From the IMG/VR virus record IMGVR_UViG_2671180984_000014: a DNA stretch of 64,000 nt; one strand, given 5' to 3'. Position numbers and translations under genes: made by a program. Under the pieces are notes generated by a model. That model was not told where the DNA came from and searched no databases. It saw nothing but the letters and a program-made list of their open reading frames with translations. Numbering within the stretch: the stretch's first letter is position 1; each line of letters starts with the position of its first letter. Below are positions 12,604-63,898 of this stretch, one piece after another. The DNA is from a virus. Its lineage: Duplodnaviria > Heunggongvirae > Uroviricota > Caudoviricetes.

Positions 12604-12739
12604 GTATTTTTAAGTCGCGAATGCTATCTTTTCGCATCATATTGACCTTTTAATCGTTCAGGCTTATAGTTCCGCCGTCGTAGCAAATTCTGCGACCGGG
12701 TTTAGCAGCCTGAATACTTACGCGGACAACCGCAGATTT

Positions 12740-12840
12740 CCGATATTGCGGTATTTTTGTGTCCGTAAACCACGTTACGCCCGAATTATGGTGGGGCGTG
12801 ATGGGGAGGCTTCGGCCTGCTGGTTTCGTAAGTGCCAGTC
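12740..12840 (+). ncRNA. c4: c4-type antisense immunity RNA (approximate bounds)
   Basis: Non-coding stretch between operator and icd containing block TTATGGTGGGGCGTGATGGGGAGGCTTCGGCCTGCTGGTTTCG, conserved in a second copy at 63759-63802; upstream hairpin plus T-run at 12730-12757. Confidence 0.35.
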
Positions 12841-12915
12841 TGCTAACCCCGTCACGTCCTGCCACCTGTTTAGCAGCGGGTCGCAGGTTGTTTATCAACT
12901 TACGAGGCCGTAACT

Positions 12916-16023: not shown

Positions 16024-16040
16024 ATTGCTCTAATCTGGAG
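16024..16040 (+). promoter_or_regulatory. partial C1-operator-like site (ATTGCTCTAATCTGG)
   Basis: 11-nt match to the operator left half, just after repL. Confidence 0.3.
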
Positions 16041-16070
16041 TCACCTGGCGTTTTCAGTTTGAGGTCGGAG

Positions 16071-16316
16071 ATGCAATCTGATTTTTTACAGTTAGCGATC
16101 GCTTTTGCAGGATATGTTTGTATTGGCTTCTGTGTATACATGATCAGCCGAAAAATGCTTGTCGATATCGACCGCAAAGAACAAGCAGAGGAGATCTTAG
16201 TATGGATTTTCTTTGGCGCGGTCTGGCCATTAGGGATCATGTTTGCTGCAACATTTCTTCTGATGTGGATATTCACCCTTCCAGGTGATTTCTATAGAAA
16301 AAAAGCCAGACATTGA
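16071..16316 (+). CDS. small two-helix membrane protein (81 aa)
   Basis: Internal ATG of track ORF 15990-16316; two hydrophobic helices. Confidence 0.35.
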   Translation: MQSDFLQLAIAFAGYVCIGFCVYMISRKMLVDIDRKEQAEEILVWIFFGAVWPLGIMFAATFLLMWIFTLPGDFYRKKARH

Positions 16317-16439
16317 TACAATCGTTGCGGGTGCTTGAGGCTATCTGCTTCAGGCATTACCCGAAAAGCAGATAGAAGAAAGCCCCAGATAACATTACGC
16401 GTCCTGCAAGACGCTTAACATTAATCTGAGGCCACATCT

Positions 16440-16646
16440 ATGCTTAGCATACGTAGATTAGCCTCTTACCGACCAAAAGGTCAAGGAGAAGCAGGCTATG
16501 AAGCAGCAAAAAGCGATGTTAATCGCTCTGATCGTCATCTGTTTAACCGTCATTGTGACGGCACTGGTAACGAGGAAAGACCTCTGCGAGGTACGAATCC
16601 GAACCGGCCAGACGGAGGTCACTGTCTTCACAGCCTACGAATCTGA
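16440..16646 (+). CDS. mok: mok-like overlapping reading frame of the hok locus
   Basis: 68-codon frame starting upstream of hok and overlapping it in another frame, the classical mok arrangement. Confidence 0.45.
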   Translation: MLSIRRLASYRPKGQGEAGYEAAKSDVNRSDRHLFNRHCDGTGNEERPLRGTNPNRPDGGHCLHSLRI

Positions 16647-16653
16647 AAGGTAA
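16498..16653 (+). CDS. hok: Hok/Gef-family type I toxin (51 aa)
   Basis: MKQQKAMLIALIVICLTVIVTALVTRKDLCEVRIRTGQTEVTVFTAYESER aligns with Hok ([26 protein letters not shown]); AAGGAG SD; below track size cutoff. Confidence 0.8.
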   Translation: MKQQKAMLIALIVICLTVIVTALVTRKDLCEVRIRTGQTEVTVFTAYESER

Positions 16654-16721
16654 GAGACCTGGCGGGGAGAGATCCCCGCCACTCTTCGTGTGTCAGGTAT
16701 CCTCAATGCACCCTTTCCTCT

Positions 16722-16748
16722 CCAAATAAAAAAGCTCCCGAAGGAGCT
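16722..16748 (-). terminator. rho-independent terminator ending the minus-strand head/tail operon
   Basis: Hairpin AGCTCCCGAAGGAGCT with T-run on the minus strand; may also end the hok transcript. Confidence 0.6.
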
Positions 16749-22104: not shown

Positions 22105-22169
22105 ACACAAGGCACTTGTGTGAATCCCTTTTCGGAAGAGATTTTATTGAAAGTCACTTGTTGACTTTC
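22105..22169 (-). promoter_or_regulatory. putative late promoter/leader: two perfect inverted repeats
   Basis: ACACAAGGCACTTGTGT (22105-22121) and GAAAGTCACTTGTTGACTTTC (22149-22169); the latter shares its core with 11065-11077, 43911-43925 and 60824-60839. Confidence 0.35.
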
Positions 22170-22225: not shown

Positions 22226-22313
22226 GGTGAAATCGTGGCGATTTCACCTTGAAATTTTAGATGGATTTACTTTAAAAACAGTAGGTTAATAGTGAAATTT
22301 GAATGGCGAAAGT
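22226..22313. promoter_or_regulatory. parS: parS partition site (centromere)
   Basis: Immediately after parB stop; reverse complement reads AAACTTTCGCCATTCAAATTTCACTATTAACC...TTTCAAGGTGAAATCGCCACGATTTCACC with ATTTCAC and TCGCCA motifs around an AT-rich core, as in P1 parS. Confidence 0.8.
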
Positions 22314-23315
22314 TTAAGGCTTCGGCTTTTTATCGAGGCTCTTTCTAAGGATATGCCCAATCATCCTGTCGAGTTCTTCCTGTAGCTCTTTTGAAAGTCG
22401 ATTAAACTCATAAGAAAATGCACGGCCTTTCACGCGCTTCCTTGCAAAGCGATCCTTGTCCTCAAATTTCCATAATTCAGTAACTACGGACTTATCTTTA
22501 GAACCTTTATCCGTGAGTAGTGAGGCTTCCTTTGTTATCAAGCGCAGGATTTTATTTTTAACTTCATCTTCGGCCATTTCTTCAATGGATAAGATGTCGT
22601 TTATTTCCGGGGATATGTTTTGAATAAGCTGATCAAACTCTAAATTCTTGTTCCCCATTTCGTCGCCAACAGCACAAAGCGTTTTGTAGTCCGAAAAGGT
22701 TAATTCCGACTGCACAGGGAAAAGGGCGACTAATTCTTCCGGAGCACTCGCTGCCTGGAGAGCACGCGTGACCTTCGCCTGAGACAGCCCTTCTTTGGCT
22801 GCAATATCCTTCTGACTCATCCCATCATTTTTCATTCGCATCAAACGCAGACCTATTTCTCGAATGCTGTGCTGCAATGCTGTCTGAACGTCTTTCGCTA
22901 AATTTTGCGCTTCCTGAACGCTGATCTCCTGGTCCGTGACTAAAACCCGCAACCCTACGTTCTCTAAGATGGCAGAAGCTCGACGCCGGGAACCATCCAA
23001 AATTTCAATTTTCCCTGTAGCCCGTCTAACACCTATTGCAGGGTAAAATTGCTGATGCTTAATAGTGCTTCGGATACTTTTTAATGATTTTGGCGTAAGA
23101 GATGCCTGGTCACGCCCGTTGTTATGCTGATCAACAAAGGTATCGCTTTCTACCTGGTTCGGAGGTATTACCTCTTCAATAAATGTGGCCTGGCGACCAG
23201 TTGATAACTTGAATACCTGCTCGACTCGATCGCCAGAGGCTGAAGAACTATCAAATCCGCTTAATATTGAAGGATTAAGGGTTCGCCCAATTGTTGGTCT
23301 GTTTTTCTTTGACAT
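22314..23315 (-). CDS. parB: ParB partition protein (333 aa)
   Basis: ParB-type HTH region (MSQKDIAAKEGLSQAKVTRAL); follows parA; followed by parS. Confidence 0.85.
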   Translation of the reverse strand: MSKKNRPTIGRTLNPSILSGFDSSSASGDRVEQVFKLSTGRQATFIEEVIPPNQVESDTFVDQHNNGRDQASLTPKSLKSIRSTIKHQQFYPAIGVRRATGKIEILDGSRRRASAILENVGLRVLVTDQEISVQEAQNLAKDVQTALQHSIREIGLRLMRMKNDGMSQKDIAAKEGLSQAKVTRALQAASAPEELVALFPVQSELTFSDYKTLCAVGDEMGNKNLEFDQLIQNISPEINDILSIEEMAEDEVKNKILRLITKEASLLTDKGSKDKSVVTELWKFEDKDRFARKRVKGRAFSYEFNRLSKELQEELDRMIGHILRKSLDKKPKP

Positions 23316-23331
23316 GGGGGTTTCTTACTCC

Positions 23332-24528
23332 TCAGTTAGATCTGATAAATTCAATACGGTCAAAAACTGCTTTAGCAAAATCTTCCGCGGCAATTCGCGC
23401 GTTCTTCAATGCATCAGCACTACCAACATACGTTGCAGGGTTAGCTGAAATAACAGTGTCAAAAGACTCGCCGCAGCGTTCAAAACCGTCAAGGCGAGGG
23501 AGGACGACATCAAGCATATCCCCACCGAACACTTCTTTAGCCAGGCTATGGCAATACTTATGGTCTGCCTTGTTACTCAACTTGGACATAAAACCAATGT
23601 TAGTCGCAAGCTGGCACTCGCAGCCTTCATCCGAAATGAGTTTCACCAACTCAGGAAGGCGGGCAACGTATTTAAGCGATGAGTGGAAATCAACCGTTGC
23701 AGGCGGCAGAGGTGTAAACAGTATATTGGCCGAGGCCAAAGCATTTTTCAGGAAGGCGTCAAGGTGAGGACCACTATCAACGAGGATAAAGTCATAATCG
23801 CTCTTCAGCTTATCAATCACATTTTCTTTCAGGACAGCATGGATGTTCTGACCCGGTAGATGCTCATTGCACAGCTCTCTCCAATCGGATGCAATAAAGG
23901 CATCGTCAATCGACGCAGGCATAACGTCAACCCCAGGTACAACAGAAGGAACAATAAACTCCTCTAACAGCTCTTCACGGCTTACATTCTGCAACATAGC
24001 CTGTGCAGATGTTGCGTTTACGATACCAATAGAGTGTTTATGGCTTAAAAACATCGTTGCTGAAGATTGCGGATCAAGGTCAATAACCAGAATCCTTAAA
24101 TCTTCCATCAGAAGATGAGGGTGAGCACGCATTGCATGCGCCAGAGAAACCGTCGATACAGTTTTTGACACACCGCCTTTAAGATTGGAGATGAAAATCA
24201 CATACGCTTCGCTGTAGCGATCCCGGTATTTTGGCACTCCGCGATGTTCATATATGTCAATGATGTTCTGAATTGACATCGCATATTTCATTGAAGAGCC
24301 AGCAGGGCGTTTATCGAAAACATAACCCTTTTCTTCCATTTCACTTACGGCATAGTCAACGTTCGCTCGAGTCAGTAGAGGCAATTTTGCCAGTGCCGCT
24401 TTCGCATAGACCTGGTAAAACTCGTTCGCGTGTAGCTCATCCTTTTGCAACTGTACTTGTTCAGTCAGAACATTGAGCATTCTGTTTGCTCTTTGAGCAA
24501 CCTTGTGAAGCTGGCTGGAATCACTCAT
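23332..24528 (-). CDS. parA: ParA partition ATPase, type Ia (398 aa)
   Basis: Deviant Walker A NLKGGVSKTVSTVSLA, Walker B-like LVIDLDPQ, ~100-aa N-terminal extension. Confidence 0.85.
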   Translation of the reverse strand: MSDSSQLHKVAQRANRMLNVLTEQVQLQKDELHANEFYQVYAKAALAKLPLLTRANVDYAVSEMEEKGYVFDKRPAGSSMKYAMSIQNIIDIYEHRGVPKYRDRYSEAYVIFISNLKGGVSKTVSTVSLAHAMRAHPHLLMEDLRILVIDLDPQSSATMFLSHKHSIGIVNATSAQAMLQNVSREELLEEFIVPSVVPGVDVMPASIDDAFIASDWRELCNEHLPGQNIHAVLKENVIDKLKSDYDFILVDSGPHLDAFLKNALASANILFTPLPPATVDFHSSLKYVARLPELVKLISDEGCECQLATNIGFMSKLSNKADHKYCHSLAKEVFGGDMLDVVLPRLDGFERCGESFDTVISANPATYVGSADALKNARIAAEDFAKAVFDRIEFIRSN

Positions 24529-24665
24529 CGAAAGTCATCCTTTATGCTGTATTTTTGAATTTAATTAAAAATGCTGCATAAAATAATAATGTATGCGTAG
24601 ATGCTTGTACATGGCATTCTCTGCATGTTTTGTTCATTTTGCACGATTGAGAGTTACAAGAAAGG

Positions 24666-24689
24666 CACAAAAAAGCCCCGTTCAGGGGC
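24666..24689 (-). terminator. rho-independent terminator closing the two-gene cassette
   Basis: Minus-strand hairpin GCCCCTGAACGGGGC followed by TTTTTT. Confidence 0.6.
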
Positions 24690-24696
24690 ATCAGTG

Positions 24697-25101
24697 TTAT
24701 TTGCTAAGAGCAGCGAATAATCGTTCGAAATCGATAGTATCTATAGCACGCGTAAGCGCCGGAAGTTCAGCCTCAAAGTACCCGTGTCGATCGTAAAAGA
24801 AGGGACCGAAGAGCGAGGCATGTTGGATTCTACTTCGCCCCAGCCCGGACACACAGTTAAGCCCATTACCGGCTAAAAGGCTAAAAAACTTCTCTGGATT
24901 ATCGTGGTAAAGCTGAGAATCAATGGTGGCGGTTAACTCTTCCATAGGGAAGCACACCCGCCCTGTCTCCCAGGGATATTTAGTCCGAAGCATAAACATT
25001 GCTTTCAGCAATTCACATTGAGCGCGGATCGCGTCCGGTTCATAGCCAGATATGGAGACATAAGCCACGTCCCTCATTCCTGCGTCATCTTTGAAAGTCA
25101 C
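24697..25101 (-). CDS. hypothetical protein (134 aa) of the incA-par cassette
   Basis: ORF with no recognisable motif. Confidence 0.4.
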   Translation of the reverse strand: MTFKDDAGMRDVAYVSISGYEPDAIRAQCELLKAMFMLRTKYPWETGRVCFPMEELTATIDSQLYHDNPEKFFSLLAGNGLNCVSGLGRSRIQHASLFGPFFYDRHGYFEAELPALTRAIDTIDFERLFAALSK

Positions 25102-25170
25102 GATAGAAGTAACATCCAGTTCTTTTTCGAAAGAGCGAGCAGCATCTACTGGACGCTGAAGTAAATCATT

Positions 25171-25506
25171 CTACTTAATGCGCTCGAGAATCCCTCCCCA
25201 CATATCATTTAGATATTCGATATGAGCCAAAACCTTATCAAGACACTCTCGTGTAAACCATTCAGTATGCCCGCCACCGGCGCTTTTCTCCCACGGCGCA
25301 TTCCAGGGGAAAAAGGTTGCGTGTAAAGCCCGCTCAAGATTAACCATTGCCAAACGCGTACCACGATAGACCCGTGAAAGCGCAAAATCGGGACTCACTT
25401 GTAGCCCTTTAAACCGTGCCAATGGACCACATGAAATGCCGATTTTAAAAGTATCTCCGTTCTCCGGCACCAGAACGTAGAGGTAGTGTTGTTTCTCTTC
25501 TTGCAT
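25171..25506 (-). CDS. T5orf172 / GIY-YIG-like domain protein (111 aa)
   Basis: YLYVLVPENGDTFKIGIS ... GGHTEWF resembles the T5orf172 signature. Confidence 0.45.
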   Translation of the reverse strand: MQEEKQHYLYVLVPENGDTFKIGISCGPLARFKGLQVSPDFALSRVYRGTRLAMVNLERALHATFFPWNAPWEKSAGGGHTEWFTRECLDKVLAHIEYLNDMWGGILERIK

Positions 25507-25540
25507 ATCAATACCACTGCTTGATGAGAACCGCGCAAAT

Positions 25541-25767
25541 GTTGACTATGCGCGATGTGACTACAGTCAAAAGTTGACTGTAGTCGATTTAACTCCACCA
25601 AAGATCGACTATGTAAGATATTGTCGGGAGAAACGTTGACTATACGCGATGAAATGACCCTAAAAGCCATCTCAATAGCGACTTGCAGAATATTGACGCC
25701 AGCAAAAATCCACCAGCGTCAACGAATGTCGCCTATAGTCAACTTCTCGCTATCGCATATAGTCAAT
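25541..25767. repeat. incA-like iteron cluster downstream of repA
   Basis: At least seven copies of the core (A)TCGCGYATAGTCAAC in both orientations. Confidence 0.65.
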
Positions 25768-25768
25768 A

Positions 25769-26710
25769 TTATGGATTGCGCTTATGGATCTGAAAGCCGA
25801 TTTTCCTGCCGTTTTTTATCTCTGAAAATTTAAGATATTCAATAGCTTCCAAATCTTTCATGGCTTTTCTGATAACGCTATTTTGCACGCTAACGGATGA
25901 TTTGAGATTAAGCCTTGCTCTAAGGCGCTCAATGCTGACAGGTGCCGGGTTGGCGGGTAGAGCCTCAAAGAATGTATACAGTACCTTGGCCGTCTCTTTG
26001 CGCCCGAGCTTATCCAGCATCTTCAGCTTCAGGATTCGCTTATAGTCAACATAGTAAAGTTCAGATAGCTGTTTCTGCGGCTGGATCTCGATAACATCAA
26101 GCTCGGTATTCAGGCTGCTATATGCCAACAAGTTGACGTTAATGTTATTGAGATGACCTTTTGCCGCCGGGAAGCGGAATTTGACAACTGTCTGCTGAAT
26201 GCGTGTCAGAGAGTCATCAATACTTTTACGGAACGCCTTTGAAAGGCGCTTACGTGGATAGCCGCATCGATCGGCAAACTCGGAGAATGGCAGGGTGATT
26301 ATGCCGTCATCATCAGGTGCGTAGTCAAACAACGCGGAGGTTATGCCCACCCACACCTTAAAATCAGTATCCATATCCAGGCGTGGACCATGAATTTCAA
26401 TTCCCTCATAGCCTTCCTGCTCAACAATTTTGAGGCTTGATAGTTCTTCGGTTGCGTTCGTTGTGTTTGTAGTAACTGACGATCCGCGACGTAGTGCCAC
26501 ATTGGTAGATTTTAAGGTTGGCACAAACACACCTAAGCGCAACAAAGCAATGGGTTGTATAGTGCTATTGTTATTGGGTTTCAGGCTGTGGATTTCTCCT
26601 GTATTTCCTGCAACTTCTTCAACGCTAAGGAAGCCTTTATTTTCTTCCAGCATCGTGGTTTCTCCATATGTGGCGCGGCCTGGCGTCATCTGGATTGCAG
26701 TTATCAACAA
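25769..26710 (-). CDS. repA: iteron-binding replication initiator RepA
   Basis: Rep-family initiator (LRLGVFVP, GPRLDMDTDFKVWVGI) flanked by iterons; start may be an internal Met. Confidence 0.8.
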   Translation of the reverse strand: MLITAIQMTPGRATYGETTMLEENKGFLSVEEVAGNTGEIHSLKPNNNSTIQPIALLRLGVFVPTLKSTNVALRRGSSVTTNTTNATEELSSLKIVEQEGYEGIEIHGPRLDMDTDFKVWVGITSALFDYAPDDDGIITLPFSEFADRCGYPRKRLSKAFRKSIDDSLTRIQQTVVKFRFPAAKGHLNNINVNLLAYSSLNTELDVIEIQPQKQLSELYYVDYKRILKLKMLDKLGRKETAKVLYTFFEALPANPAPVSIERLRARLNLKSSVSVQNSVIRKAMKDLEAIEYLKFSEIKNGRKIGFQIHKRNP

Positions 26711-26730
26711 CTGTGAATAGTCAGGCTCTA

Positions 26731-26834
26731 AAATCGCGTACAGTCAATGTTTCTGTCGCATATAGTCAACAATAAATCGCGTGCAGTCAACAATAAATCG
26801 TGCACAGTCAACATAAAATCGCGTATAGTCAATG
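26731..26834. repeat. origin iterons (incC-like), five ~21-bp direct repeats
   Basis: AAATCGCGTRYAGTCAACAAT x5; DnaA-box-like TTATCAACA at 26701-26709. Confidence 0.7.
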
Positions 26835-26986
26835 TTGATCCCATTTCAGGCCAGAAATGGCGCGGCTTACAGCGATCCGGGATCTTCTTTGGATCTTCCT
26901 GGGTTCTCTTTAGGATCTGTTTATTGGATCTATGCTGTGGATAAGTTGAATAAACCGGCCAACATAGCCGGTTGGAAGGAAGGGTA

Positions 26987-27379
26987 TTATTCTACGCTTT
27001 CGATAAGAAGACCATGTTCATAACATTTAAGCTCATCGCCTTCGTACAGGAATTGGTATCCAATACCACCATTTTCATGGACATTAGGGAATAACTCATA
27101 ACTCACTGAAGAGCAAATCACACCAATGCAGCGATCAACGCCTTCTCGTTCTTCAGTGCTGAAAAAATCCTCTTCGGTAAGAACATGAGTACATTGCTCA
27201 TCAGCATAGGTCGGAAATACATGCTCGATGCAATCCGGGTGTTTTAAACCAAGCTGATCGGCAAGCTCGAAAGCATGACGGTATTGTTCAGATCCTGGCT
27301 TGCCAACAGTGATGTGCTCAATTTTGTAAATTGAAGTCGCTTTGTTGATAGTTTGCTTTACTGTTACTTTATCAGACAT
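26987..27379 (-). CDS. hypothetical protein (130 aa)
   Basis: ORF. Confidence 0.35.
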   Translation of the reverse strand: MSDKVTVKQTINKATSIYKIEHITVGKPGSEQYRHAFELADQLGLKHPDCIEHVFPTYADEQCTHVLTEEDFFSTEEREGVDRCIGVICSSVSYELFPNVHENGGIGYQFLYEGDELKCYEHGLLIESVE

Positions 27380-27390
27380 AAAAATCCCTT

Positions 27391-27642
27391 TTAGTTACCG
27401 CTGATAGCGCGGTTGTAATCATTAACGTTGCGATTCTTCCTGTTAATCCCCATCAGCATCGTTTCTGTATCGAGGATATACGCTGGCAGATCATCAAAAT
27501 ATTCACTGCTAAACTCTGGCATCCTGCACATAAACGCACTTTTGGGGGCAGGGTGGTTAACCTTTGTCGGCGTCGGCGTTAAATTCGCTGATCGACTCCC
27601 GGAGCAACCGCTGAGTGTCAGCAGGAATGCGCTGGCGAACAT
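27391..27642 (-). CDS. outer-membrane lipoprotein, o-spanin (Rz1)-like
   Basis: Lipobox LTLSGC, Pro-rich mature part (TPTPTKVNHPAPK); start overlaps 3' end of 27557-28006 in another frame. Confidence 0.45.
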   Translation of the reverse strand: MFASAFLLTLSGCSGSRSANLTPTPTKVNHPAPKSAFMCRMPEFSSEYFDDLPAYILDTETMLMGINRKNRNVNDYNRAISGN

Positions 27643-28006
27643 TACCCGCCGCAACCAGTTGTTTCTGAACTTCAGCTTTTCGTTCCATTTGCCTGTCAGC
27701 ATATTTGGCTTGTTCTGATTCATTTTTCACTTCCTGGCTGTGAAAATGTTGCTCTGCTTTGTTCATCGTCTCAATGGTCTGGTTAAGATCCATTATTGAC
27801 TTATCACGTTCCTTAACAGCCTGATCAAGACTGCCAATTTTCTCCATGGCTTGCTTTAGCTGATGACGTTCCCATGCAAACCCAGCACCAACAAGTGCGC
27901 AAATCAGAACAAGAACACCAGTAGCAGCAAGTTTCTCCTTCAAAGACAAAGCTGTTTTTAACGTAGAAAAGAATGACATGTCTTCCTCCTGAAGAAAAAT
28001 TATCAA
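27557..28006 (-). CDS. i-spanin (Rz)-like: N-terminal TM helix plus coiled coil
   Basis: TM segment ATGVLVLICALVGAGFAW then charged coiled-coil region. Confidence 0.4.
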   Translation of the reverse strand: MIIFLQEEDMSFFSTLKTALSLKEKLAATGVLVLICALVGAGFAWERHQLKQAMEKIGSLDQAVKERDKSIMDLNQTIETMNKAEQHFHSQEVKNESEQAKYADRQMERKAEVQKQLVAAGNVRQRIPADTQRLLRESISEFNADADKG

Positions 28007-28018
28007 TGAAGTCCTTTG

Positions 28019-28807
28019 TTACCGTGCCGCTTTGTTTAATTCATCAAGAACAGAATCAGGAACCAAAGCGGCGACTGCGCTGGCTGTGCTGGCCTTATTT
28101 GCTGATGCTTCCGCAAGCGCGGTACCGATAGCATGGTTATAAGCAGTTATGGCTACGTTGGCGCTTTCATTCGCTCGTTCATACTGCTGTTGTAACGCAG
28201 TTGTGGGTGCTGTTGTCTGGTTGAAAACAACCCCAAACTGTTCAGTTGCTACTTTCAGAGATTCAATTTGCTCTTCTGTTAGTGCTGGTGGGGGAGTGGC
28301 AGTGCCGCCGCCTGAACCAGAGCCTGACGAGCTTTCTGAGCCAGTGTTAAGGGCCTGGTTAATCTCCCCCATTGCAGCGACTAAACTTGATGTATTAAGC
28401 GCGTTAACAGCGTCCTCAAGCGATTTAGTAATATTCACATCACCAATGGCAATAGAGATCGGCAGTTCTGAAACTTCTCGCTCATTAGCACGGCAGTAAA
28501 CATCCCAACCAATATCGAGTTGAAGCAGCATTGACAGATCTGCATAACCAGCCAACAGGTCCGCGTGCTTAGTTGCCAGTTCTCCAATGTTCGTTAAGCC
28601 GGTTGTGGTTGTTCTGATCGTTGAAACATAGCTGGTAATAGTGTCGGGATAGACAATTGTATCCAGAATTAATCCGGTCAATTCTTCTGCAAGCAGTTTT
28701 GCTGTGTTAGCACTGTTTCGTGCCGATGTTATGGCACCAGGTGTTTTCATCCCACCGGCGGCGGCCAATTTTTTATATGCGGATAACTGGTAGTCTTTTT
28801 CCAACAT
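28019..28807 (-). CDS. hypothetical protein (~262 aa)
   Basis: Track ORF 28019-28864 trimmed to internal Met (MLEKDYQ...) to avoid overlap with upstream gene. Confidence 0.3.
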   Translation of the reverse strand: MLEKDYQLSAYKKLAAAGGMKTPGAITSARNSANTAKLLAEELTGLILDTIVYPDTITSYVSTIRTTTTGLTNIGELATKHADLLAGYADLSMLLQLDIGWDVYCRANEREVSELPISIAIGDVNITKSLEDAVNALNTSSLVAAMGEINQALNTGSESSSGSGSGGGTATPPPALTEEQIESLKVATEQFGVVFNQTTAPTTALQQQYERANESANVAITAYNHAIGTALAEASANKASTASAVAALVPDSVLDELNKAAR

Positions 28808-28815
28808 GATATCTC

Positions 28816-29100
28816 CTAACTTACCTGAACCAGGCCGTCTCCGGACGCTACGGTAGATCCGCATGAAACAGGGTCACCAACGCATACGATCCCTTTACCA
28901 TTGACGGTAAACCATGCCCTGGTTGATATAGCTTGCCCACCGTGCGTACTGTTTCCATCGGTATGCTGTGCATATTGCTTACCATCAACTAACACTTCGA
29001 CTCCGTTGACTTTAAGTAGTGGTTCACTCTCTACAGGAGGCCTGGATGGGAATCCTCCGTGCCCCGAACAAATGCTGTCTTTTGTTGCAATGCTTGCCAC
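28816..29100 (-). CDS. PAAR-like small spike-tip protein (94 aa)
   Basis: Motifs SGHGG, THGG and VCVGDPVSCGS typical of PAAR-repeat proteins. Confidence 0.4.
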   Translation of the reverse strand: MASIATKDSICSGHGGFPSRPPVESEPLLKVNGVEVLVDGKQYAQHTDGNSTHGGQAISTRAWFTVNGKGIVCVGDPVSCGSTVASGDGLVQVS

Positions 29101-29181
29101 GCCATCACCAATTATTTGCTCTGATTTTCGTTATTTTAACTTAGGTTATTTGTGGTCTGTATGGCGTTTACTTATCGCAAA

Positions 29182-29198
29182 ATTGCTCTAATAAATAT
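29182..29198 (+). promoter_or_regulatory. C1-type operator (ATTGCTCTAATAAATAT) in divergent promoter region
   Basis: 15/17 match; precedes the hrdC-dmt operon. Confidence 0.65.
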
Positions 29199-29269
29199 TG
29201 TTTTTTATGTCGTATTTTCGGTACCATTCAGCCATCGCCCTTCAATGGGCATTTGTTTGGAGTCGTCAG

Positions 29270-29554
29270 ATGCAGATGGAGCTAATAAGCCGCAAAGAGT
29301 TCGATAGCCGTGTAACCAGCGGTGAACTCGACAACTTGCAGGCTATCAAGGTGAAAGAAGGCTTTTGCCTCATTGGGAATCAGAGCGGAATAAATCGCGT
29401 TTTTATGCTTCGCCGTACGGATTTGAAGCCATTTGTCTGGAAGAACGAAATTGGTCCCAGCTCATACGCTCAAACGAGGGGGTGCCACAACCTGGCCTTT
29501 TTCTACAAAGACGAGCTTTCTGTGGTTGATATTCAAGGGTTACAACATGTTTAA
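29270..29554 (+). CDS. small protein upstream of the rdgC homolog (~94 aa)
   Basis: Internal Met of track ORF 29198-29554; start uncertain. Confidence 0.3.
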
Positions 29555-34162: not shown

Positions 34163-34237
34163 GATGGTGTAGCTCAGCGGTAGAGCAGTTGGCTGTTAAC
34201 CAACTGGTCGGTAGTTCGAATCCACCCACCATCGCCA
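34163..34237 (+). tRNA. tRNA-Asn (anticodon GTT)
   Basis: Acceptor GATGGTG/CACCATC, anticodon loop CTGTTAA, T-loop TTCGAAT, 3' GCCA. Confidence 0.8.
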
Positions 34238-34242
34238 CTTTA

Positions 34243-34328
34243 GGGGAGTTAGTCCGTAGGGGTAGCGGGGTAGACTGTAAATCTACTGTCATTGCGACTC
34301 GGGTGGTTCGACTCCATCACTCCCCACC
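34243..34328 (+). tRNA. tRNA-like element, anticodon loop CTGTAAA (GUA, Tyr-like) with long variable arm and irregular D-arm
   Basis: Acceptor GGGGAGT/ACTCCCC, perfect anticodon stem GTAGA/TCTAC, T-arm GGTGGTTCGACTCCATC, ACCA end; D-arm does not fold canonically. Confidence 0.4.
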
Positions 34329-34333
34329 ACATT

Positions 34334-34409
34334 GCCGATTTAGCTCAGTTGGTAGAGCAGTCGCTTTGTAAGCGAATGGTCAGCGGTTCGATCCCGTTAA
34401 TCGGCACCA
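34334..34409 (+). tRNA. tRNA-Thr (anticodon TGT)
   Basis: Acceptor GCCGATT/AATCGGC, D-arm GCTCAGTTGGTAGAGC, anticodon loop TTTGTAA, T-loop TTCGATC, CCA. Confidence 0.8.
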
Positions 34410-36354: not shown

Positions 36355-36430
36355 GGCCCTTTAGCTCAGTGGTTAGAGCTGGCGACTCATAATCGCACGG
36401 TCACCGGTTCAAGTCCGGTAGGGGCCACCA
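36355..36430 (+). tRNA. tRNA-Ile2 type (anticodon CAT; could be read as Met without lysidine)
   Basis: Near-identical in architecture to E. coli ileX: acceptor GGCCCTT/AGGGGCC, anticodon loop CTCATAA, T-loop TTCAAGT, CCA. Confidence 0.8.
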
Positions 36431-52299: not shown

Positions 52300-52586
52300 A
52301 TATCGACACGACAATAACGATCGATACGCTCCTAAATACCGGTCTGGCACTTCTCGGTTGGCTTTTCATCATGTCCCGTACATGGCGATGGCTGGGTTCC
52401 ATTTTCCTAAAACAGTGGAAAAAACGGCGCAAACAGGAACTACGCCAGAAGGCATTAGAAGCGTTCTATGACGCATTTGAGCTTAGCCGCATTGAACCAG
52501 GTACAACAGCTAGGATAGCGACAAAAGGCGACCTGATGATAGTGATGTTCCGACAGGAGAGAGCAGAGAAAGGGGAATCAGCATGA
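52296..52586 (+). CDS. small membrane protein (~97 aa, GTG start)
   Basis: GTG overlapping upstream TGA, SD AAGGAAG; one TM helix. Confidence 0.35.
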   Translation: MNIDTTITIDTLLNTGLALLGWLFIMSRTWRWLGSIFLKQWKKRRKQELRQKALEAFYDAFELSRIEPGTTARIATKGDLMIVMFRQERAEKGESA

Positions 52587-53287
52587 AATTTTCCAAATTT
52601 TCTGAGTTGGTGAATCGTATTTTGTTCAACAACCACAGCCATCGTCGCGATATGGATGTAACAATCGTTGTTCATTCGCCTGGCAGCATTGGTTCAACAC
52701 CCTCAGTTGAGGTTCAGTCAATTCACGCTGGTTTTGATTGGGATTCCGGGACAGTGCTGATTTTCCCAGCACAGCCACTGACCACGCTAACACCAGAACA
52801 GATTACTGATATTACTGATAGTGTGCGCAAAGGTCAGTCCTGGCACGCATATCAGGAATACAAGAAGCATAAAGAGCAGTTGGAAAAATTATCGATTGAA
52901 CTTGATGCCGCAAAACAGCGCATTGCAGAGCTGGAGGGTAATTGCGCGGCGCTGGCGGCGGAGAATGCGGCAATGCATGAAACTATTGAAGCCGTTCGGG
53001 GTGTTGCGGATAACTCCAGTGGAATTGCCGGATGGCATTTGAATGGCGATATCGCTACATGGGAAGAGATTCTTCCTGAAATTAACGATATCGAAACCCC
53101 AGCCACCGATGCTTTTCTGGCTGAAGTACGTGCGCAGGGCGTGGAGATGCTGGCAAAAAATCATCAGAGTATCGTCAATGCACTTAAGGGAGATTCTTTA
53201 TTTTCTGATGGTGAATACCGACATGCAGCTATTGTTTCCGCAGCTGTATATTTCGCTGCAGAGCTTCGCAAAGGAGGCAACCAGTGA
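52583..53287 (+). CDS. Ead/Ea22-like protein, paralog B
   Basis: Shares ETPATDAFLAEVRAQG and the LEGNCAALAAENAAM block with paralog A. Confidence 0.45.
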   Translation: MKFSKFSELVNRILFNNHSHRRDMDVTIVVHSPGSIGSTPSVEVQSIHAGFDWDSGTVLIFPAQPLTTLTPEQITDITDSVRKGQSWHAYQEYKKHKEQLEKLSIELDAAKQRIAELEGNCAALAAENAAMHETIEAVRGVADNSSGIAGWHLNGDIATWEEILPEINDIETPATDAFLAEVRAQGVEMLAKNHQSIVNALKGDSLFSDGEYRHAAIVSAAVYFAAELRKGGNQ

Positions 53288-53940
53288 GCGAAATTAATTA
53301 CCAGGCACTGCGTGAGGCGGCAGAACGTGCAACTCCAGCAATGGAACGCCTGTTAATGTTGCCAGTTGATGATGATTTGTTAAGTGAACAGGAACTTAAA
53401 GATTACGGTGTGGATATTGATGCGCTCAACGCCTTCAAATTTCTGACCGGACCAGAAACCGTGCTGGCACTACTGGATGAACGGGAAAGAAACCAGCAAT
53501 ACATCAAATCACGCGACCAGGAGAACGAGGAGATTGCGCTTACGGAAGGGAAGCTGCTAATCGAAAACGGCCGGCTTGTTGCCGATACGCTACGCCACTT
53601 AGCTGATAACGAAATCGACTCTGATTATTTTGCTATCACCTCAACGAATGAGAACGGTACTGAAATTGATCATGAGATGGCTATTACCGATTACGCACTG
53701 CAAGCTGCCGGAACTGTAGACGAATTGGTTGCGGCGTTGGAATCCGCAGAGAATCGCATTGCAGAACTGGAAGCACGGGAAATATCGCTCCCAGAACGTA
53801 GCAGCATGCTTCATCGAACAGATTTTCACGATGATTACCAAACGGTAATGGCATACAAAGTTTCTGAAGTCATCGCTGCAATCCGCGCCGCTGGCATTCG
53901 CATCAAAGGAGAGGAGCATGGAAATAAAACCAGAAGATGA
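53284..53940 (+). CDS. Ead/Ea22-like protein, paralog C
   Basis: INYQALREAAE...TVLALLDERERNQQ...AENRIAELEARE. Confidence 0.45.
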   Translation: MSEINYQALREAAERATPAMERLLMLPVDDDLLSEQELKDYGVDIDALNAFKFLTGPETVLALLDERERNQQYIKSRDQENEEIALTEGKLLIENGRLVADTLRHLADNEIDSDYFAITSTNENGTEIDHEMAITDYALQAAGTVDELVAALESAENRIAELEAREISLPERSSMLHRTDFHDDYQTVMAYKVSEVIAAIRAAGIRIKGEEHGNKTRR

Positions 53941-54274
53941 GTTAAGCAATATCGTTTTATTTCCGGTAAAAGAGGATGACCCACGTAATCAGGTTAATTT
54001 TCTCTATGAGCCATCGGAAAGACCATATTGCCATCACGCCTCTGTCCGGGTTGACGAAAAAGAGCGTCAGGTCCGCTGTAAAATCTGCGGTGCAGTTGTG
54101 GAGCCATTTGACTGGATGCTCTCTGTGGCGAAAAGAGAAACCAGACTGGCAGATGATGTAAGGATCTTGCGCCAGGAGGAACGGGAAAGGCGGAGAAATA
54201 TAGAAAAGCTAATTCAGATTGAGCGTAACGTGAAAGCGCGGATACGCAGGGTGACAAAATCCAGAACTGAATAA
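53918..54274 (+). CDS. small zinc-ribbon protein (118 aa)
   Basis: CHHASVRVDEKERQVRCKICG. Confidence 0.35.
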   Translation: MEIKPEDELSNIVLFPVKEDDPRNQVNFLYEPSERPYCHHASVRVDEKERQVRCKICGAVVEPFDWMLSVAKRETRLADDVRILRQEERERRRNIEKLIQIERNVKARIRRVTKSRTE

Positions 54275-54322
54275 TTAAATTTAGCTCTGTTAAAAATTTA
54301 ATCCTTAACCGGAGGTATATCA

Positions 54323-54535
54323 ATGTCAAACGCACAGAAAGTTATTAACGCTGAAAAATATAACGAGTGGGTGAAAAAGTTCTCAGAGCAGATTTTTAAA
54401 ATTACTGGCGACGAGAATGCGGCAAAAAATGAATTAGAGCCGTGGACACCTGAAGGTGTCGACCCAAATTATTGCTGGTGGGATGTTGATCCAGTTGATG
54501 CTGCAAATGAAGCTATGAGTTATCACAACGATTAA
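54323..54535 (+). CDS. small hypothetical protein (70 aa)
   Basis: SD GGAGG. Confidence 0.35.
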   Translation: MSNAQKVINAEKYNEWVKKFSEQIFKITGDENAAKNELEPWTPEGVDPNYCWWDVDPVDAANEAMSYHND

Positions 54536-54735
54536 TGTCAGGAGGCCGCCCGAAAGGGCGGTAATGAAAAGTGACTGAATTAACCAAAGAGAAATTAATC
54601 GAAGAAGCCAAATTAAAAATAGCGATTGCGAAATGCTACCCCAATTCAGGGATGGCACGGGTATAGGGCGAGTTATTCAAAATTGCACTGGCATAGCTGG
54701 AAGCAGATCCAGTTAAACGAGTTAACTCAGATCAG

Positions 54736-55434
54736 ATGCACCGAGTCTGCTTAGAAGCTAATCGCTATTTAGATAAATATGACGCGATGGCGAAAGAGGT
54801 AAATAAGTTGCTTGGACGCATCGCCCCGCCAGCGCCAGTATTTAACGGCGAATACGGTGACGCATATCAGGGCGCTCGTGAAGACCTGTCCATCTGGAAA
54901 CGGCGAGCGCTTGAAGCTGATGAGCACGTTCGGCGACTGGAGCAAATCAATGACCACATGGTGAAAGAGGCGCAGGGAGAATCACGCATGGGCGAGCCTG
55001 TAATACGTGAGCCAGCACCGGTAGTGCCTGAAGAAGCAACTCCGGAAAACGTAGAAATGCTCTCTGGCTATGTTTCAACGTACAAATTAACCGATAGCGA
55101 GCGCGATATTGCTGCCGAAATATGGAACGCCTGCCGCGCCGCCATGCTTCAGGCTGGAAACTTTCGGGAAAATAAGGGTTCGTCAACCAATAATTTTCGG
55201 GAAATCTCGGAAACGTCAACCAACTATCCGGTAACTCCGGATGGTTGGATAAGCTGTAGTGAGCGAATGCCCGCTCAAGATGATTGGATTTTAATTTATT
55301 CAAAGCACGGTGAGTATATGGCAGGACAGGTGCAAGGGGAATACGTGGAGTTGAGCGACGGCACTTTATCGTGGTTAGGGAACGCCTTGTTCTGGATGCT
55401 GCTACCAGAACCTCCCCAGGAGGCAGGTCAATGA
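54736..55434 (+). CDS. hypothetical protein (232 aa)
   Basis: ORF. Confidence 0.35.
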   Translation: MHRVCLEANRYLDKYDAMAKEVNKLLGRIAPPAPVFNGEYGDAYQGAREDLSIWKRRALEADEHVRRLEQINDHMVKEAQGESRMGEPVIREPAPVVPEEATPENVEMLSGYVSTYKLTDSERDIAAEIWNACRAAMLQAGNFRENKGSSTNNFREISETSTNYPVTPDGWISCSERMPAQDDWILIYSKHGEYMAGQVQGEYVELSDGTLSWLGNALFWMLLPEPPQEAGQ

Positions 55435-55514
55435 GCTGGCCTGAAGCATTCGCAACGGTAGGAATTGTGATGGCGGCAGCACTGGGTTTGTATTCAATTT
55501 GTCGCTGGTGGTAA
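55431..55514 (+). CDS. 27-aa hydrophobic peptide (MSWPEAFATVGIVMAAALGLYSICRWW)
   Basis: ATG overlapping upstream stop; SD AGGAGG. Confidence 0.35.
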   Translation: MSWPEAFATVGIVMAAALGLYSICRWW

Positions 55515-55750
55515 CGATGGGGAAATTAACTTTTGTAGTCGAATTTGAGGATGGTAAAGAGCCACCTGTTAGCGCCAATCTTGATGTTGCTGGTGGCAGG
55601 CTTGTTTCGGTTCTATTTGGTGACTACCGAGATGATTTCTTCCAACCAGAAGAAGTTGATGTGGTGCGAGAGGCATTAAACGAGTTAAGTGTTGATAACG
55701 ATGATGCTCATGCGGAAATCATCCAAAAAATGGAACTGCTAACTCACTAA
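55499..55750 (+). CDS. small acidic protein (83 aa)
   Basis: ORF. Confidence 0.3.
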   Translation: MSLVVTMGKLTFVVEFEDGKEPPVSANLDVAGGRLVSVLFGDYRDDFFQPEEVDVVREALNELSVDNDDAHAEIIQKMELLTH

Positions 55751-55798
55751 ATTATCAATTATGGTGCTATCACCTACGACACCGAGAGAAAATTTATA

Positions 55799-55921
55799 AT
55801 GTCAAAAGTAAATGTTTTGATTTTTTCAGCAATTGTTGGCTTTGGTTTTACTGCCGGAGTGCAGATTTATATTGCGTGGGAAAAAATCATCAACTACGCA
55901 TGGAGTTGTTTTATTAAGTGA
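55799..55921 (+). CDS. 40-aa hydrophobic peptide (MSKVNVLIFSAIVGFGFTAGVQIYIAWEKIINYAWSCFIK)
   Basis: Short ORF with one TM helix; stop abuts next gene's SD. Confidence 0.3.
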   Translation: MSKVNVLIFSAIVGFGFTAGVQIYIAWEKIINYAWSCFIK

Positions 55922-55928
55922 GGTAAGT

Positions 55929-56222
55929 ATGTGGAGAGGTAATAGTCATGGCAAAAGCCAGATGATACTTACCGAATATAAGCTAGACCACAAAACCAAT
56001 AAATCACGTTCAGTATATTTGCTTCGCCACAATAGCCGCGTAAGGAATACCGTACTGGAGCAAAATCTGACCGTTGAAATGGATAATTACGGGGGCTTCA
56101 AGCCAACAATATCGCTTGATGATTTTCCTCGTGGTTTAAGCGAAAGAGAAGCAATGCTGAAATTAGCAGAATGGCTACAAAGATTAAGCATTGCTATTGA
56201 AGATAACTGGTCTGAACCTTAA
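55929..56222 (+). CDS. small hypothetical protein (97 aa)
   Basis: Internal ATG of track ORF 55833-56222 behind SD GAGGTAAG. Confidence 0.35.
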   Translation: MWRGNSHGKSQMILTEYKLDHKTNKSRSVYLLRHNSRVRNTVLEQNLTVEMDNYGGFKPTISLDDFPRGLSEREAMLKLAEWLQRLSIAIEDNWSEP

Positions 56223-56228
56223 ATTTAT

Positions 56229-56603
56229 ATGATGACACTAAAACATTTTCTTGACCGCCCATTATGGGCGGCAGCCGCAGGCTATGACTTTAATTATATG
56301 GATTGCATGTCTTATACTGCCAATGCATACGACCATTCGTTCAGCCTGCTGTTTAATTCTTTAAGAATATTGCCGCAAACAGAAGTTGGAGAGCTTCATT
56401 TATGGCTATTGGGCTTTATCGCGGCTGGAGTTGGTATTGCTGTATGGCCTTTTATTTTCTGGCTGGTGGCTGTTGTAGTGTGGTTTAAGTGCAAGACGTA
56501 CCGGAAAAAGTATTTCTTAGGTGATGGAATGACTGATATTGCCAAAATGAACATTGAAAAATGGACTAAGGAATGTGAAAAGAAATGGCGCAAAAAGAAA
56601 TGA
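56229..56603 (+). CDS. membrane protein (124 aa)
   Basis: Two adjacent TM helices. Confidence 0.35.
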   Translation: MMTLKHFLDRPLWAAAAGYDFNYMDCMSYTANAYDHSFSLLFNSLRILPQTEVGELHLWLLGFIAAGVGIAVWPFIFWLVAVVVWFKCKTYRKKYFLGDGMTDIAKMNIEKWTKECEKKWRKKK

Positions 56604-57265
56604 CTACTCTAACGACAGCATACTTACAGCAATTGGTATTTTTTGCAGGCGAGGCTACTTGTCATCCTGACGCAAACTATTTATTGGAATTTGAGAGGTT
56701 AGCGTCACCCGGTATCGTTCTGGAACTGGCCCAACAGGTGCTGGCCTTAAGACAAAAAGAGCAACATGAAAGTAATACGTGTAGATTGAATTTTGAGCAG
56801 TGGCTGGAACAGCAACGCGGAAAAATCGATGTGGACTGTGGTTGTGTGTCTACTGAAACATTCATGCACTGGCTGCGGGTAGCTTACGAGGCTGGCAACT
56901 ATCCGGATATTCCGGATAGTTCGGTGCCAGCGCCAGGAAAGGGCGTCACCGGTGAACGTATCCGCATTAAGCCGCATGTTTATCGCGAACTGGTTAACCG
57001 TCTCCACGATACAGCGATCAAGTGTGCAGGCACCCGGCAATTACGAGAAAAAATTAGCCGTGTTTTGGGCGACGTTATTACGCCAGATCATCATAAACAA
57101 GCCGAGAAAAGTGGCCTGGAAAGGTGTCACCTTGAGGCGGCATTAAACATTAAGCCGGGGCATACGCTTGGCATTATTGATGCACTATTGGTTCATAAGA
57201 TGGCCAGGGCTTTATTGCCGCTGGTGGCTGATAAGCATGAGGCGGGCCATGCCAACGAAAGCTGA
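56585..57265 (+). CDS. hypothetical protein (226 aa)
   Basis: ORF. Confidence 0.35.
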   Translation: MAQKEMTTLTTAYLQQLVFFAGEATCHPDANYLLEFERLASPGIVLELAQQVLALRQKEQHESNTCRLNFEQWLEQQRGKIDVDCGCVSTETFMHWLRVAYEAGNYPDIPDSSVPAPGKGVTGERIRIKPHVYRELVNRLHDTAIKCAGTRQLREKISRVLGDVITPDHHKQAEKSGLERCHLEAALNIKPGHTLGIIDALLVHKMARALLPLVADKHEAGHANES

Positions 57266-57533
57266 GTTACAGGCGCGCATAGAGATTCTTGAAAAAGAGA
57301 ATGCGAGTCTAAAAGGAATGCTGGCGCGGGCGGAAAGGGAATTATCAGGCAAATTATTGCCAGAAGAACTGCCACCAGCAGATATACCAGATCGAGTGTC
57401 CCGGTGGATGAAGTCTTTTGGTTTACCGTGGGAGGCTTTTTGGTGCTACGAGCATCGCAGATGGTGTGATGAACTTGATAGCAGTTTCCCCTACTTTGCG
57501 GAAGGGAACACCTGCCCTGAGTGTAGGAGGTAG
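57249..57533 (+). CDS. small coiled-coil / Cys-pair protein (94 aa)
   Basis: Internal ATG of track ORF 57168-57533; C-terminal CxxC. Confidence 0.3.
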   Translation: MPTKAELQARIEILEKENASLKGMLARAERELSGKLLPEELPPADIPDRVSRWMKSFGLPWEAFWCYEHRRWCDELDSSFPYFAEGNTCPECRR

Positions 57534-57537
57534 CGCG

Positions 57538-57816
57538 ATGTTTCGTCCTCGTCCAATACCGCCGAAAATAACTAATGGCTATCAGCCGAATACTCCAGAA
57601 ATACAAGGGAGCGAGGGGCTTAAACCACCACCAGCACCACGTATTCCGCCTGTAGCAAGGAACGTATCATTACGACGAGAGTTAATATTAGCCTTGTCGC
57701 CCGTTCTGGCTGCCCGCCAGGATTGGGTAAGTAATGATGACCTGGCAGAAAAAATCACATCGCTGGTGGATAAAATTCTGCAGATTGGCAATGAGATTAC
57801 GCTGATCCATTGGTGA
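57538..57816 (+). CDS. Pro-rich small protein (92 aa)
   Basis: Internal ATG behind SD GTAGGAGG. Confidence 0.3.
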   Translation: MFRPRPIPPKITNGYQPNTPEIQGSEGLKPPPAPRIPPVARNVSLRRELILALSPVLAARQDWVSNDDLAEKITSLVDKILQIGNEITLIHW

Positions 57817-57900
57817 TGAATAGTAGCAAAGCGCACAAAATCATCTGCGGTGGTTGGTGTACATAACGAGTTTGCACCAAAGGTGTCTCTTTAATGTATA

Positions 57901-57916
57901 CTGTATAAATGAACAG
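57901..57916 (+). promoter_or_regulatory. LexA (SOS) box CTGTATAAATGAACAG
   Basis: CTGT-N8-ACAG palindrome 22 bp upstream of humD. Confidence 0.7.
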
Positions 57917-57937
57917 TATTATTGAGGTGAAAACGCT

Positions 57938-63580: not shown

Positions 63581-63699
63581 TGTTTTTTAGCTACCGATGT
63601 TACATTGAACCTGACCTCTTGCGCCTTGAGGCATTTTCGGTTTATGCTTATCAGGCACCTCATTAAAACGGGTGCCGGGATTGGCCTCCCGCTTAAGTC

Positions 63700-63815: not shown

Positions 63816-63898
63816 AGGCCAACTCCGTACAGTCCACCGCCAGCAAGATTGGTCTCTTCTGCGGTGGTTACATACCAACGTCTAAGGAGGCTGCCAAT

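Follow-up and report, generated by a model that had tools for sequence, protein, structure and literature searches.

The ppfA/mlp gene pair of a P1-like phage-plasmid, a predicted two-component spanin of the overlapped LysB/LysC type

The ppfA/mlp locus and its transcription unit

The DNA analysed here, a stretch of 64,000 nucleotides referred to as the window, is a P1-like phage-plasmid that is collinear with phage P1 between the tail-fibre gene S and pacB. Between positions 26900 and 28900, its identity to P1, P7, SJ46, RCS47 and other P1-like phages is 95-99.9%. Two genes in this region are the counterparts of ppfA (gp064) and mlp (gp063) of P1, placed between upfB and upfA and beside oriR/repA (Table 1). 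An earlier examination of the letters of this DNA (the sequence-only reading) had described them as an overlapping pair situated beside the replicon rather than in a lysis cassette, and this description was borne out. The overlapping pair is real, with both ORFs on the minus strand, one being the gene of an inner-membrane protein and the other that of a lipoprotein. RepA (25769-26710) and the oriR-equivalent region adjoin the pair with upfA alone between them, and the neighbours of the pair are upfC, upfB, upfA and repA rather than lysis genes.

Table 1. Features of the ppfA/mlp locus, with positions in the window
Feature	Position	Strand	Basis
upfC, PAAR-like, upstream gene of the tightly packed unit	28816-29100	-	
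upfB, upstream gene of the tightly packed unit	28019-28864	-	
ppfA Shine-Dalgarno sequence, AGGAGG	27985..27990	-	Sequence; equivalent in P1 (PMC6139136 Table S1)
ppfA orthologue, i-spanin candidate, 140 aa	27557..27979 (stop codon included)	-	ATG with AGGAGG; identity to P1 PpfA; phrog_89
ppfA codons 17-35, single transmembrane segment (LAATGVLVLICALVGAGFA)	27875..27931	-	Kyte-Doolittle maximum 2.35; inside predicted helix 13-110
mlp Shine-Dalgarno sequence, AGGAAG, inside ppfA codons Q82-E83-V84	27730..27735	-	Sequence; conserved placement
mlp orthologue, lipoprotein precursor and candidate o-spanin, 110 aa when read from the first ATG	27391..27723 (stop codon included)	-	Identity to P1 Mlp; phrog_30284
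Dual-coding overlap, 167 nt: last 55 ppfA codons and first 55 mlp codons, +1 frame	27557..27723	-	
Predicted signal peptide of Mlp (codons 1-39), of unusual length and with a basic n-region	27607..27723	-	
Alternative TTG start of mlp, codon 24	27652-27654	-	
Lipobox L-S-G-C (L37-S38-G39-C40), Cys40 codon at 27604-27606	27604..27615	-	
Cys66 codon, only periplasmic cysteine of the PpfA/Mlp pair	27526..27528	-	Invariant in five lineages
upfA, downstream gene, starting 11 nt past the mlp stop	26987..27379	-	
Terminator-like hairpin followed by a T-run, 3' of upfA	26959..26975	-	Consensus match only

Comparison with the pair of P1 shows the same two genes in the same position, with the same ribosome sites and an overlap of 167 nt in both. 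PpfA is identical to its P1 counterpart at 139 of 140 residues (99%) and Mlp at 108 of 110 (98%), the only three amino acid changes being I45M in PpfA and S7N and V32A in the signal peptide of Mlp. The rep/par module adjoining the pair differs, being of the SJ46/JL22 type and not of the P1 type. The pair was found in 646 of 5426 complete E. coli genomes (~12%), where it is nearly always plasmid-borne.

The outer boundary of the pair had been put at position 28006, the limit of a TTG-extended ORF (27557-28006). This was not upheld: the start of ppfA is likely the ATG at 27979, as AGGAGG lies upstream of it at proper spacing. The starts and ribosome sites given for P1 (PMC6139136 Table S1) are the same as those assigned here. 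For mlp, the ATG of codon 1 is accompanied by a ribosome site in all five lineages in which the gene was compared (see below), while four of these lineages also have, at codon 23 or 24, a start-capable codon lacking such a site. Initiation at codon 23/24 is possible and would result in a canonical signal peptide of 16-17 residues resembling that of LysC of phage P2, the mature Mlp being identical either way. Met28 was also considered as the start of Mlp and rejected, as this residue is not conserved.

The terminator-like hairpin 3' of upfA is the probable end of an upfC-upfB-ppfA-mlp-upfA transcription unit. In one P1-like phage-plasmid carrying resistance genes, an insertion is present in upfA, the gene just 3' of mlp. 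Spanin genes usually, if not obligatorily, accompany holin and endolysin genes, either among them or as direct neighbours. This is not the placement of ppfA/mlp: lyz and lydA/B/C, the lysis genes of P1, are located in other regions of P1 that lie beyond this window, a point counted against a spanin role, as is the fact that the pair is co-oriented and tightly packed with the non-lysis genes upfC and upfB.

Expression signals of the unit were examined using the Lpa late-promoter template (LP23 box, AAGTGACTT-N4-TAAAAT). No Lpa late box with at most one mismatch was found upstream of the unit on the minus (coding) strand of 27380-29440; a two-mismatch Lpa-like site at 29133-29151 is within chance expectation. 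The window does contain canonical Lpa boxes at other places, 22141-22159 and 2765-2783. The promoters given for the unit in the P1 record are predicted sigma-70 promoters only, and these predictions, together with the apparent lack of an Lpa box, also count against the spanin reading. Next to the promoter region of the unit lies the C1 operator belonging to the divergently oriented dmt promoter.

The two proteins and the use of the overlapping frames

PpfA had been described as possessing one N-terminal transmembrane helix and a long coiled coil. The first of these features is confirmed, with residues 17-35 giving a 19-residue Kyte-Doolittle mean of 2.35 and all other windows of the protein scoring 1.6 or less. 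The only cysteine of PpfA sits within this segment, and charged residues make up 35% of the protein outside it. AlphaFold2 modelling (17-sequence alignment; pLDDT 72.5) predicted an unbroken helix at residues 13-110, a break at 111-119 and a further helix at 120-139. The coiled coil is thus supported by half: the long helix is predicted, while the heptad pattern appears in the membrane-proximal half only, with a fixed a/d register over approximately residues 38-82 (a score reached by 29 of 2000 shuffles). A single N-terminal transmembrane segment followed by a largely helical periplasmic part is what is expected of an i-spanin, for which an N-in/C-out orientation can be inferred. The best PHROG match of PpfA is phrog_89, 'Rz-like spanin' (E 1.2e-25). 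A search of PDB sequences with the PpfA profile returned nothing relevant, and Foldseek comparison of the PpfA model with BFVD gave no match with E < 0.25, a long helix being an uninformative type of query.

Mlp matches phrog_30284 over its full length (E 2e-77). It was recognized as a lipoprotein by its lipobox, and this stands: L37-S38-G39-C40 is followed by Ser at position +2 and by a mature part of 71 aa in total. As the +2 residue is Ser, there is no Asp Lol-avoidance signal, and Mlp has the make-up of an o-spanin, being small and bearing a lipobox for signal peptidase II; its sorting to the outer membrane is predicted. Its description as Pro-rich was overstated, as just six of the 71 mature residues are Pro (8.5%), five of them within a 16-residue stretch near the mature N-terminus (TPTPTKVNHPAP). 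From the first ATG the signal peptide is 39 residues long, which is unusual and is counted against the spanin reading. At least one periplasmic Cys is present in 507 of 528 spanin systems (criteria of Summer 2007 and Kongari 2018); in the present pair this residue is Cys66 of Mlp, invariant across five lineages. A crude lipobox scan of the window and of one complete P1 genome identified no other lipoprotein gene on the sense strand, which leaves Mlp, downstream of the membrane-anchored PpfA, as the sole candidate pair.

Four diverged relatives of PpfA were identified: in a Salmonella-type P1-like contig (L006; 59% identity), in Cronobacter (L007; 63%), in a 94-kb Pantoea-type contig (L091; 31%) and in a 1.2-kb contig (L092; 28-29%). 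The ribosome site of ppfA reads GGAGG in L006, L007 and L091 and AAGGAG in L092. All four possess an ORF of 109-111 codons in the +1 frame that begins with ATG, overlaps ppfA by 164-179 nt and has a Shine-Dalgarno-like AGGAGG, AGGAAG or GAGG at the position equivalent to that of mlp. The encoded proteins all contain FLL[TS]Lxx-C and share a C-terminal motif with Mlp (MC-x-x-P-x-F ... DL-x-x-Y ... N-x-KN-x-x-VN-x-YN); L37, C40 and Cys66 of Mlp are invariant in all five lineages. The gene order upfC-upfB-ppfA-mlp is shared by L006, L007 and L091, and in diverged relatives a Gp49-like gene takes the place of upfA.

The PpfA family is narrow. Beyond P1-like elements, searches with a HMMER profile against 1.84 billion representatives, a word-indexed profile and tblastn added only one 1.2-kb contig; the two profile searches returned P1-like elements of Enterobacterales, and the 19 records matched by tblastn, out of 50,697 phage records, are likewise P1-like. 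These searches for relatives inside a lysis cassette supplied no link to one, that link coming only from the PHROG profiles and from the similarity of Mlp to LysC. A scan of viral contigs for P0108 gave no matches. Against Pfam, PpfA had sub-threshold coiled-coil matches only and Mlp had none, no lysis-related model being among them; neither protein had an above-threshold match in NCBIfam, and PADLOC gave no match.

The start of the lipoprotein gene had been said to overlap the 3' end of the first gene in another frame, and this is accurate, the overlap being 167 nt in the +1 frame. The two genes of a spanin adjoin each other in an embedded, overlapped or separated layout, with an o-spanin gene in the +1 frame expected where they overlap; the arrangement seen here is retained in the four diverged lineages. 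Furthermore, 88 matching loci, representing 58 distinct sequences, were collected, and both ORFs are intact in nearly all of the 58. Substitutions were analysed among the 55 of these that are close and ungapped, plus the window, with counts referring to polymorphic sites and not to independent events. Outside of the overlap, mlp has 21 synonymous and 9 non-synonymous substitutions, 19% being expected to be synonymous (p = 2e-9). Among the 21 substitutions of the overlap, 12 leave the PpfA sequence unchanged (p = 6e-4), with change occurring mainly at third positions of ppfA codons; five of the 21 are synonymous in the mlp frame, where no synonymous bias is seen. These changes alter the signal-peptide region of Mlp, with L37-C40 and residues 41-54 unvarying among the 55 close sequences. 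The substitution pattern shows a signature of purifying selection acting on the mlp frame. From this pattern, from the conserved ATG and Shine-Dalgarno-like sequence and from the invariance of the lipobox and Cys66, both frames are judged to be translated. A natural PpfA::Mlp fusion of 195 aa (P0031) also exists; in its predicted structure the Mlp part has a pLDDT below 50.

Comparison with the spanins of P1, P2, lambda and T4

The P1 pair has been catalogued as a two-component spanin of the overlapped ('ovl') class (gp064/gp063; Kongari et al. 2018, PMC6139136 Table S1), where P1 Mlp is flagged 'Too long signal sequence' with LipoP cleavage at position 39, and where the periplasmic Cys counts are zero for the i-spanin and one for the o-spanin. 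By sequence (PHROGs 89 and 30284), PpfA and Mlp of the window are members of this spanin family, entered as 'P1' in the Kongari 2018 table. It has also been described that the spanin genes of P1 overlap partially and form an operon unlinked to other lysis genes, with an assignment from predicted features that is credited to Summer et al. 2007 (Bednarek et al. 2022, PMC9025707); the labels of the i- and o-spanin are swapped in the text of that paper (PMC9025707). In a CRISPRi study of P1, the efficiencies of plating were 0.24 and 0.19 for mlp and 1.3 and 1.2 for ppfA, and both genes were scored as non-essential for plaques, while Rz of lambda was scored as essential in the same study (PMC10695390). 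The non-essential scores count against the spanin reading. In a set of 77 P1-like phage-plasmids, both genes rank among the 21 that are most conserved (PMC9603915).

Outside the P1 family, the pair is most usefully compared with LysB/LysC of phage P2, the prototype for overlapped spanin genes. LysC and Mlp are homologous (BLASTP, 37% identity over 68 aa, E 5e-8; hhalign probability 86%), Mlp being extended at its N-terminus by 23 residues, and LysC matches phrog_456 and, weakly, phrog_30284, the family of Mlp. LysB shares phrog_89 with PpfA (E 5.8e-61 and 1.2e-25, respectively), although the two have no pairwise similarity and PpfA scores 19 bits against the LysB model TIGR03495, which has a cut-off of 92.75, so that it is not a member by that model. 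The proteins are of comparable length (141 and 96 aa for LysB/LysC; 140 and 110 aa for PpfA/Mlp) and the +1 overlap is 146 nt in P2 compared with 167 nt here. The lysB/lysC genes are part of a lysis cassette, directly 3' of holin Y, endolysin K and lysA, whereas ppfA/mlp are unlinked to lysis genes. The pair is best described as a putative distant relative of the LysB/LysC-type spanins that lies outside a lysis cassette and is not an equivalog member.

The sequence-only reading had called the architecture that of the classical Rz/Rz1. This holds insofar as the sequence features of an overlapped two-component spanin are present; by descent the pair is not of the Rz/Rz1 kind, with no significant similarity and no Pfam match. 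BLASTP of lambda Rz against PpfA gave E 0.26, and that of Rz1 against Mlp gave E 0.007 in an alignment limited to the signal peptide and Pro stretch, neither being significant. The lambda proteins belong to PHROGs 13 and 3198 instead of 89 and 30284, and the lambda genes are embedded whereas ppfA/mlp are overlapped. In Rz1 the mature protein has 40 aa, 10 of them Pro, and its secondary structure is undetectable (PMC6139136), while the mature part of Mlp is 71 aa with six Pro and a conserved C-terminal domain; lambda Rz has two periplasmic Cys (PMC6139136) and PpfA has zero. Both systems are predicted to pair a type II inner-membrane protein that has a helical periplasmic domain with a small lipoprotein of the outer membrane whose gene lies in the +1 frame. 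Both offer one or more periplasmic Cys for a homotypic disulfide, and fusion of the inner and outer membranes is the presumed mechanism of both. PseT.3/PseT.2 of phage T4 differ from ppfA/mlp in having a separated (non-overlapping) architecture and in belonging to an unrelated family. The T4 genes are likewise unlinked to those of the holin and endolysin.

Predicted role, alternatives and significance

The explanation favoured here, to which we assign a probability of roughly 85%, is that ppfA/mlp encode the two-component spanin of a P1-like phage-plasmid (Punavirus) and that this spanin belongs to the overlapped LysB/LysC type. If the pair works as lambda Rz/Rz1 do, the N-terminal helix of PpfA would hold the protein in the inner membrane in an N-in/C-out orientation, with its helical domain of approximately 100 residues reaching into the periplasm. 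Translation of Mlp would begin at the internal ribosome site, in the +1 frame; after lipidation at Cys40 and cleavage by signal peptidase II, the Lol system would deliver it to the outer membrane and place it in the inner leaflet. The C-terminal parts of both proteins, which are conserved, would then bind to form a bridge spanning the periplasm, with the complexes kept apart by the meshwork of the cell wall, and Cys66 may serve to dimerise Mlp. Once the P1 endolysin Lyz destroys the wall, the complexes would be expected to collapse and the inner and outer membranes to fuse, removing the last barrier to phage release.

The pair adjoins oriR/repA and the partition genes, and it has sigma-70-type promoters alone predicted upstream in the P1 record, with no Lpa late box found. 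These observations would also suit a function in the envelope of the lysogen, expressed from sigma-70 promoters, such as superinfection exclusion, serum resistance or outer-membrane tethering in the manner of phage lipoproteins of the Bor, Cor or Llp type. Dispensability for plaques under CRISPRi (PMC10695390) points the same way, and carriage by 646 of the 5426 complete E. coli genomes, nearly always on plasmids, makes selection in the lysogenic state conceivable. Such a function is nonetheless unlikely to be the explanation: known exclusion and conversion lipoproteins act alone, whereas Mlp is always paired with an overlapping inner-membrane helical protein; Mlp is homologous to a lysis-cassette protein, LysC of P2, PpfA matches the PHROG family of LysB, and PADLOC was without matches.

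A role at infection or in the virion, in which PpfA and Mlp would help in the assembly of the tail or spike or in envelope penetration and not in cell exit, is suggested by their neighbours. The order upfC-upfB-ppfA-mlp is kept in all diverged P1-like relatives examined, these four genes are tightly packed or overlapping, and upfC is a PAAR-like spike-tip gene. This proposal is less probable still, as a signal peptidase II lipoprotein leaves the cytoplasm to be anchored in the outer membrane of the host and so would be unavailable for virion assembly in the cytoplasm; moreover, the homology of Mlp to P2 LysC stands against it, upfB and upfC are reported to be non-essential (PMC10695390), and PpfA and Mlp match no structural-protein family. 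That the lipoprotein frame is a chance, untranslated open frame, with only ppfA and a short downstream ORF being real, would agree with the NCBI PGAP/RefSeq call of a 46-aa ORF from Met65 only, with the omission of mlp from another P1 record and with the unbiased substitutions in the mlp frame of the overlap (5 of 21 synonymous), yet it is highly improbable given that a frame of 109-111 codons with ATG, Shine-Dalgarno-like sequence and lipobox persists at 28-31% PpfA identity, that 55 close sequences show no variation at L37-C40 or at residues 41-54, and that the similarity to P2 LysC covers the lipobox region and not just the part downstream of Met65.

Beyond late lysis, the pair might serve the envelope in a second way (exclusion, vesicle release or help at entry), with expression at an early stage or in the lysogen, and the conserved basic signal peptide of 39 residues could be regulatory; we consider this improbable. 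It is based on the pair forming a conserved unit with upfB and the PAAR-like spike-tip gene upfC beside the plasmid origin, and on a promoter region that lacks an Lpa late box and borders on the C1 operator of dmt.

Both the gene pair and its interpretation as a spanin, the predicted breaker of the outer membrane at the last step of lysis, were already known. As the pair is present in a curated spanin catalogue, its value as a discovery is low. What is added here is supporting evidence from sequence comparison, namely conservation of the +1 frame in four lineages, the substitution pattern of the mlp frame and the homology of Mlp to P2 LysC. Automated annotation mishandles mlp, with RefSeq giving a 46-residue fragment without a signal peptide and other records omitting the gene, and the copies in E. 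coli are mostly labelled 'hypothetical' or just 'ppfA'. P1 itself serves as a workhorse phage, and resistance genes are spread by P1-like phage-plasmids.

Annotation and naming of the spanin pair

The gene of the candidate o-spanin lipoprotein Mlp is mishandled by public annotation. All that RefSeq's PGAP pipeline calls of mlp is a 46-aa ORF starting at Met65, which possesses neither the signal peptide nor the lipobox (NZ_AP018809.1, 57838-57978); this plasmid is 100% identical to the window across the ppfA/mlp pair. The gene is absent from the annotation of another P1 record, OP279344.1. A search of 5426 complete E. coli genomes identified the pair in 646 of them; among the matches listed, it is usually labelled 'hypothetical protein' or 'ppfA' alone. 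In the literature, the Introduction of PMC9025707 gives the i- and o-spanin labels of the P1 pair opposite to what is read from the sequence, where the lipobox is found in Mlp and the transmembrane anchor in PpfA, the candidate i-spanin.

Fused PpfA::Mlp reading frames

At least eight different ORFs of 193-195 aa in protein databases join PpfA to Mlp. Four of the junctions were traced to DNA, and each is explained by a single-base deletion at a run of A, G or GG, located within the overlap of the two genes or at its start; the remaining junctions agree with this pattern. As most of the fused ORFs derive from read-level assemblies, they may be sequencing errors or genuine inactivating mutations. 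Among the 88 loci fetched, a truncated ppfA was identified in only one (L086).

Neighbouring genes and regions differing from P1

The gene order upfC-upfB-ppfA-mlp is kept in every diverged relative examined, and a note in the P1 record gives UpfC 31% identity to gp5.4 of phage T4. Four tRNA genes were identified in the window, and the P1 comparison record lists three (Asn, Thr and Met), the additional gene being that for tRNA-Tyr. The C4, a1/b1 and isrK elements (12664-12869 and 63655-63844) are the immunity-region RNAs expected for P1-like phages.

Features of the window discussed in the text
Feature	Position	Strand	Remarks
a1/b1 target element	12664-12716	+	Rfam
C4 antisense RNA, two copies	12784-12869; 63757-63844	+	Rfam
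hok/sok toxin-antisense module	16329-16653	+	Rfam sok, 114.8 bits
Hok-like ORF	16498-16653	+	51 aa; part of hok/sok module
parB, parA, repA module	22266-26850		No DNA-level alignment to P1
mlp	27391-27723	-	
Junction region of fusions P0031, P0038, P0044, P0046, P0055, P0066, P0072, P0002	27557-27723	-	ppfA/mlp overlap
upfB	28019-28864	-	No known family; overlapped by upfC
upfC	28816-29100	-	PAAR-like; NCBIfam T6SS_PAAR_dom, E 4.5e-9, under cut-off
tRNA genes (Asn, Tyr, Thr, Met(CAT))	34163-34409; 36355-36430	+	Tyr at 34243-34329
Mosaic region (7.6 kb)	50577-58177		Mostly unalignable to P1 isolate OP279344
isrK	63655-63732	+	Rfam

The stretch around hok/sok (16034-16728) is not alignable to P1, in which rlfA/rlfB occupy its place. 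The mosaic region consists of lambdoid or Stx-phage-like genes, among them two Ead/Ea22-like genes, DUF4752 and DUF551, and corresponds to the pmgT-humD region, known to be hypervariable in P1-like phage-plasmids. The parB-parA-repA module is 99% identical to its counterparts in SJ46, JL22 and vB_EcoM-Ro157c2YLVW, and is a replicon of a type other than that of P1, adjoining the conserved spanin unit.
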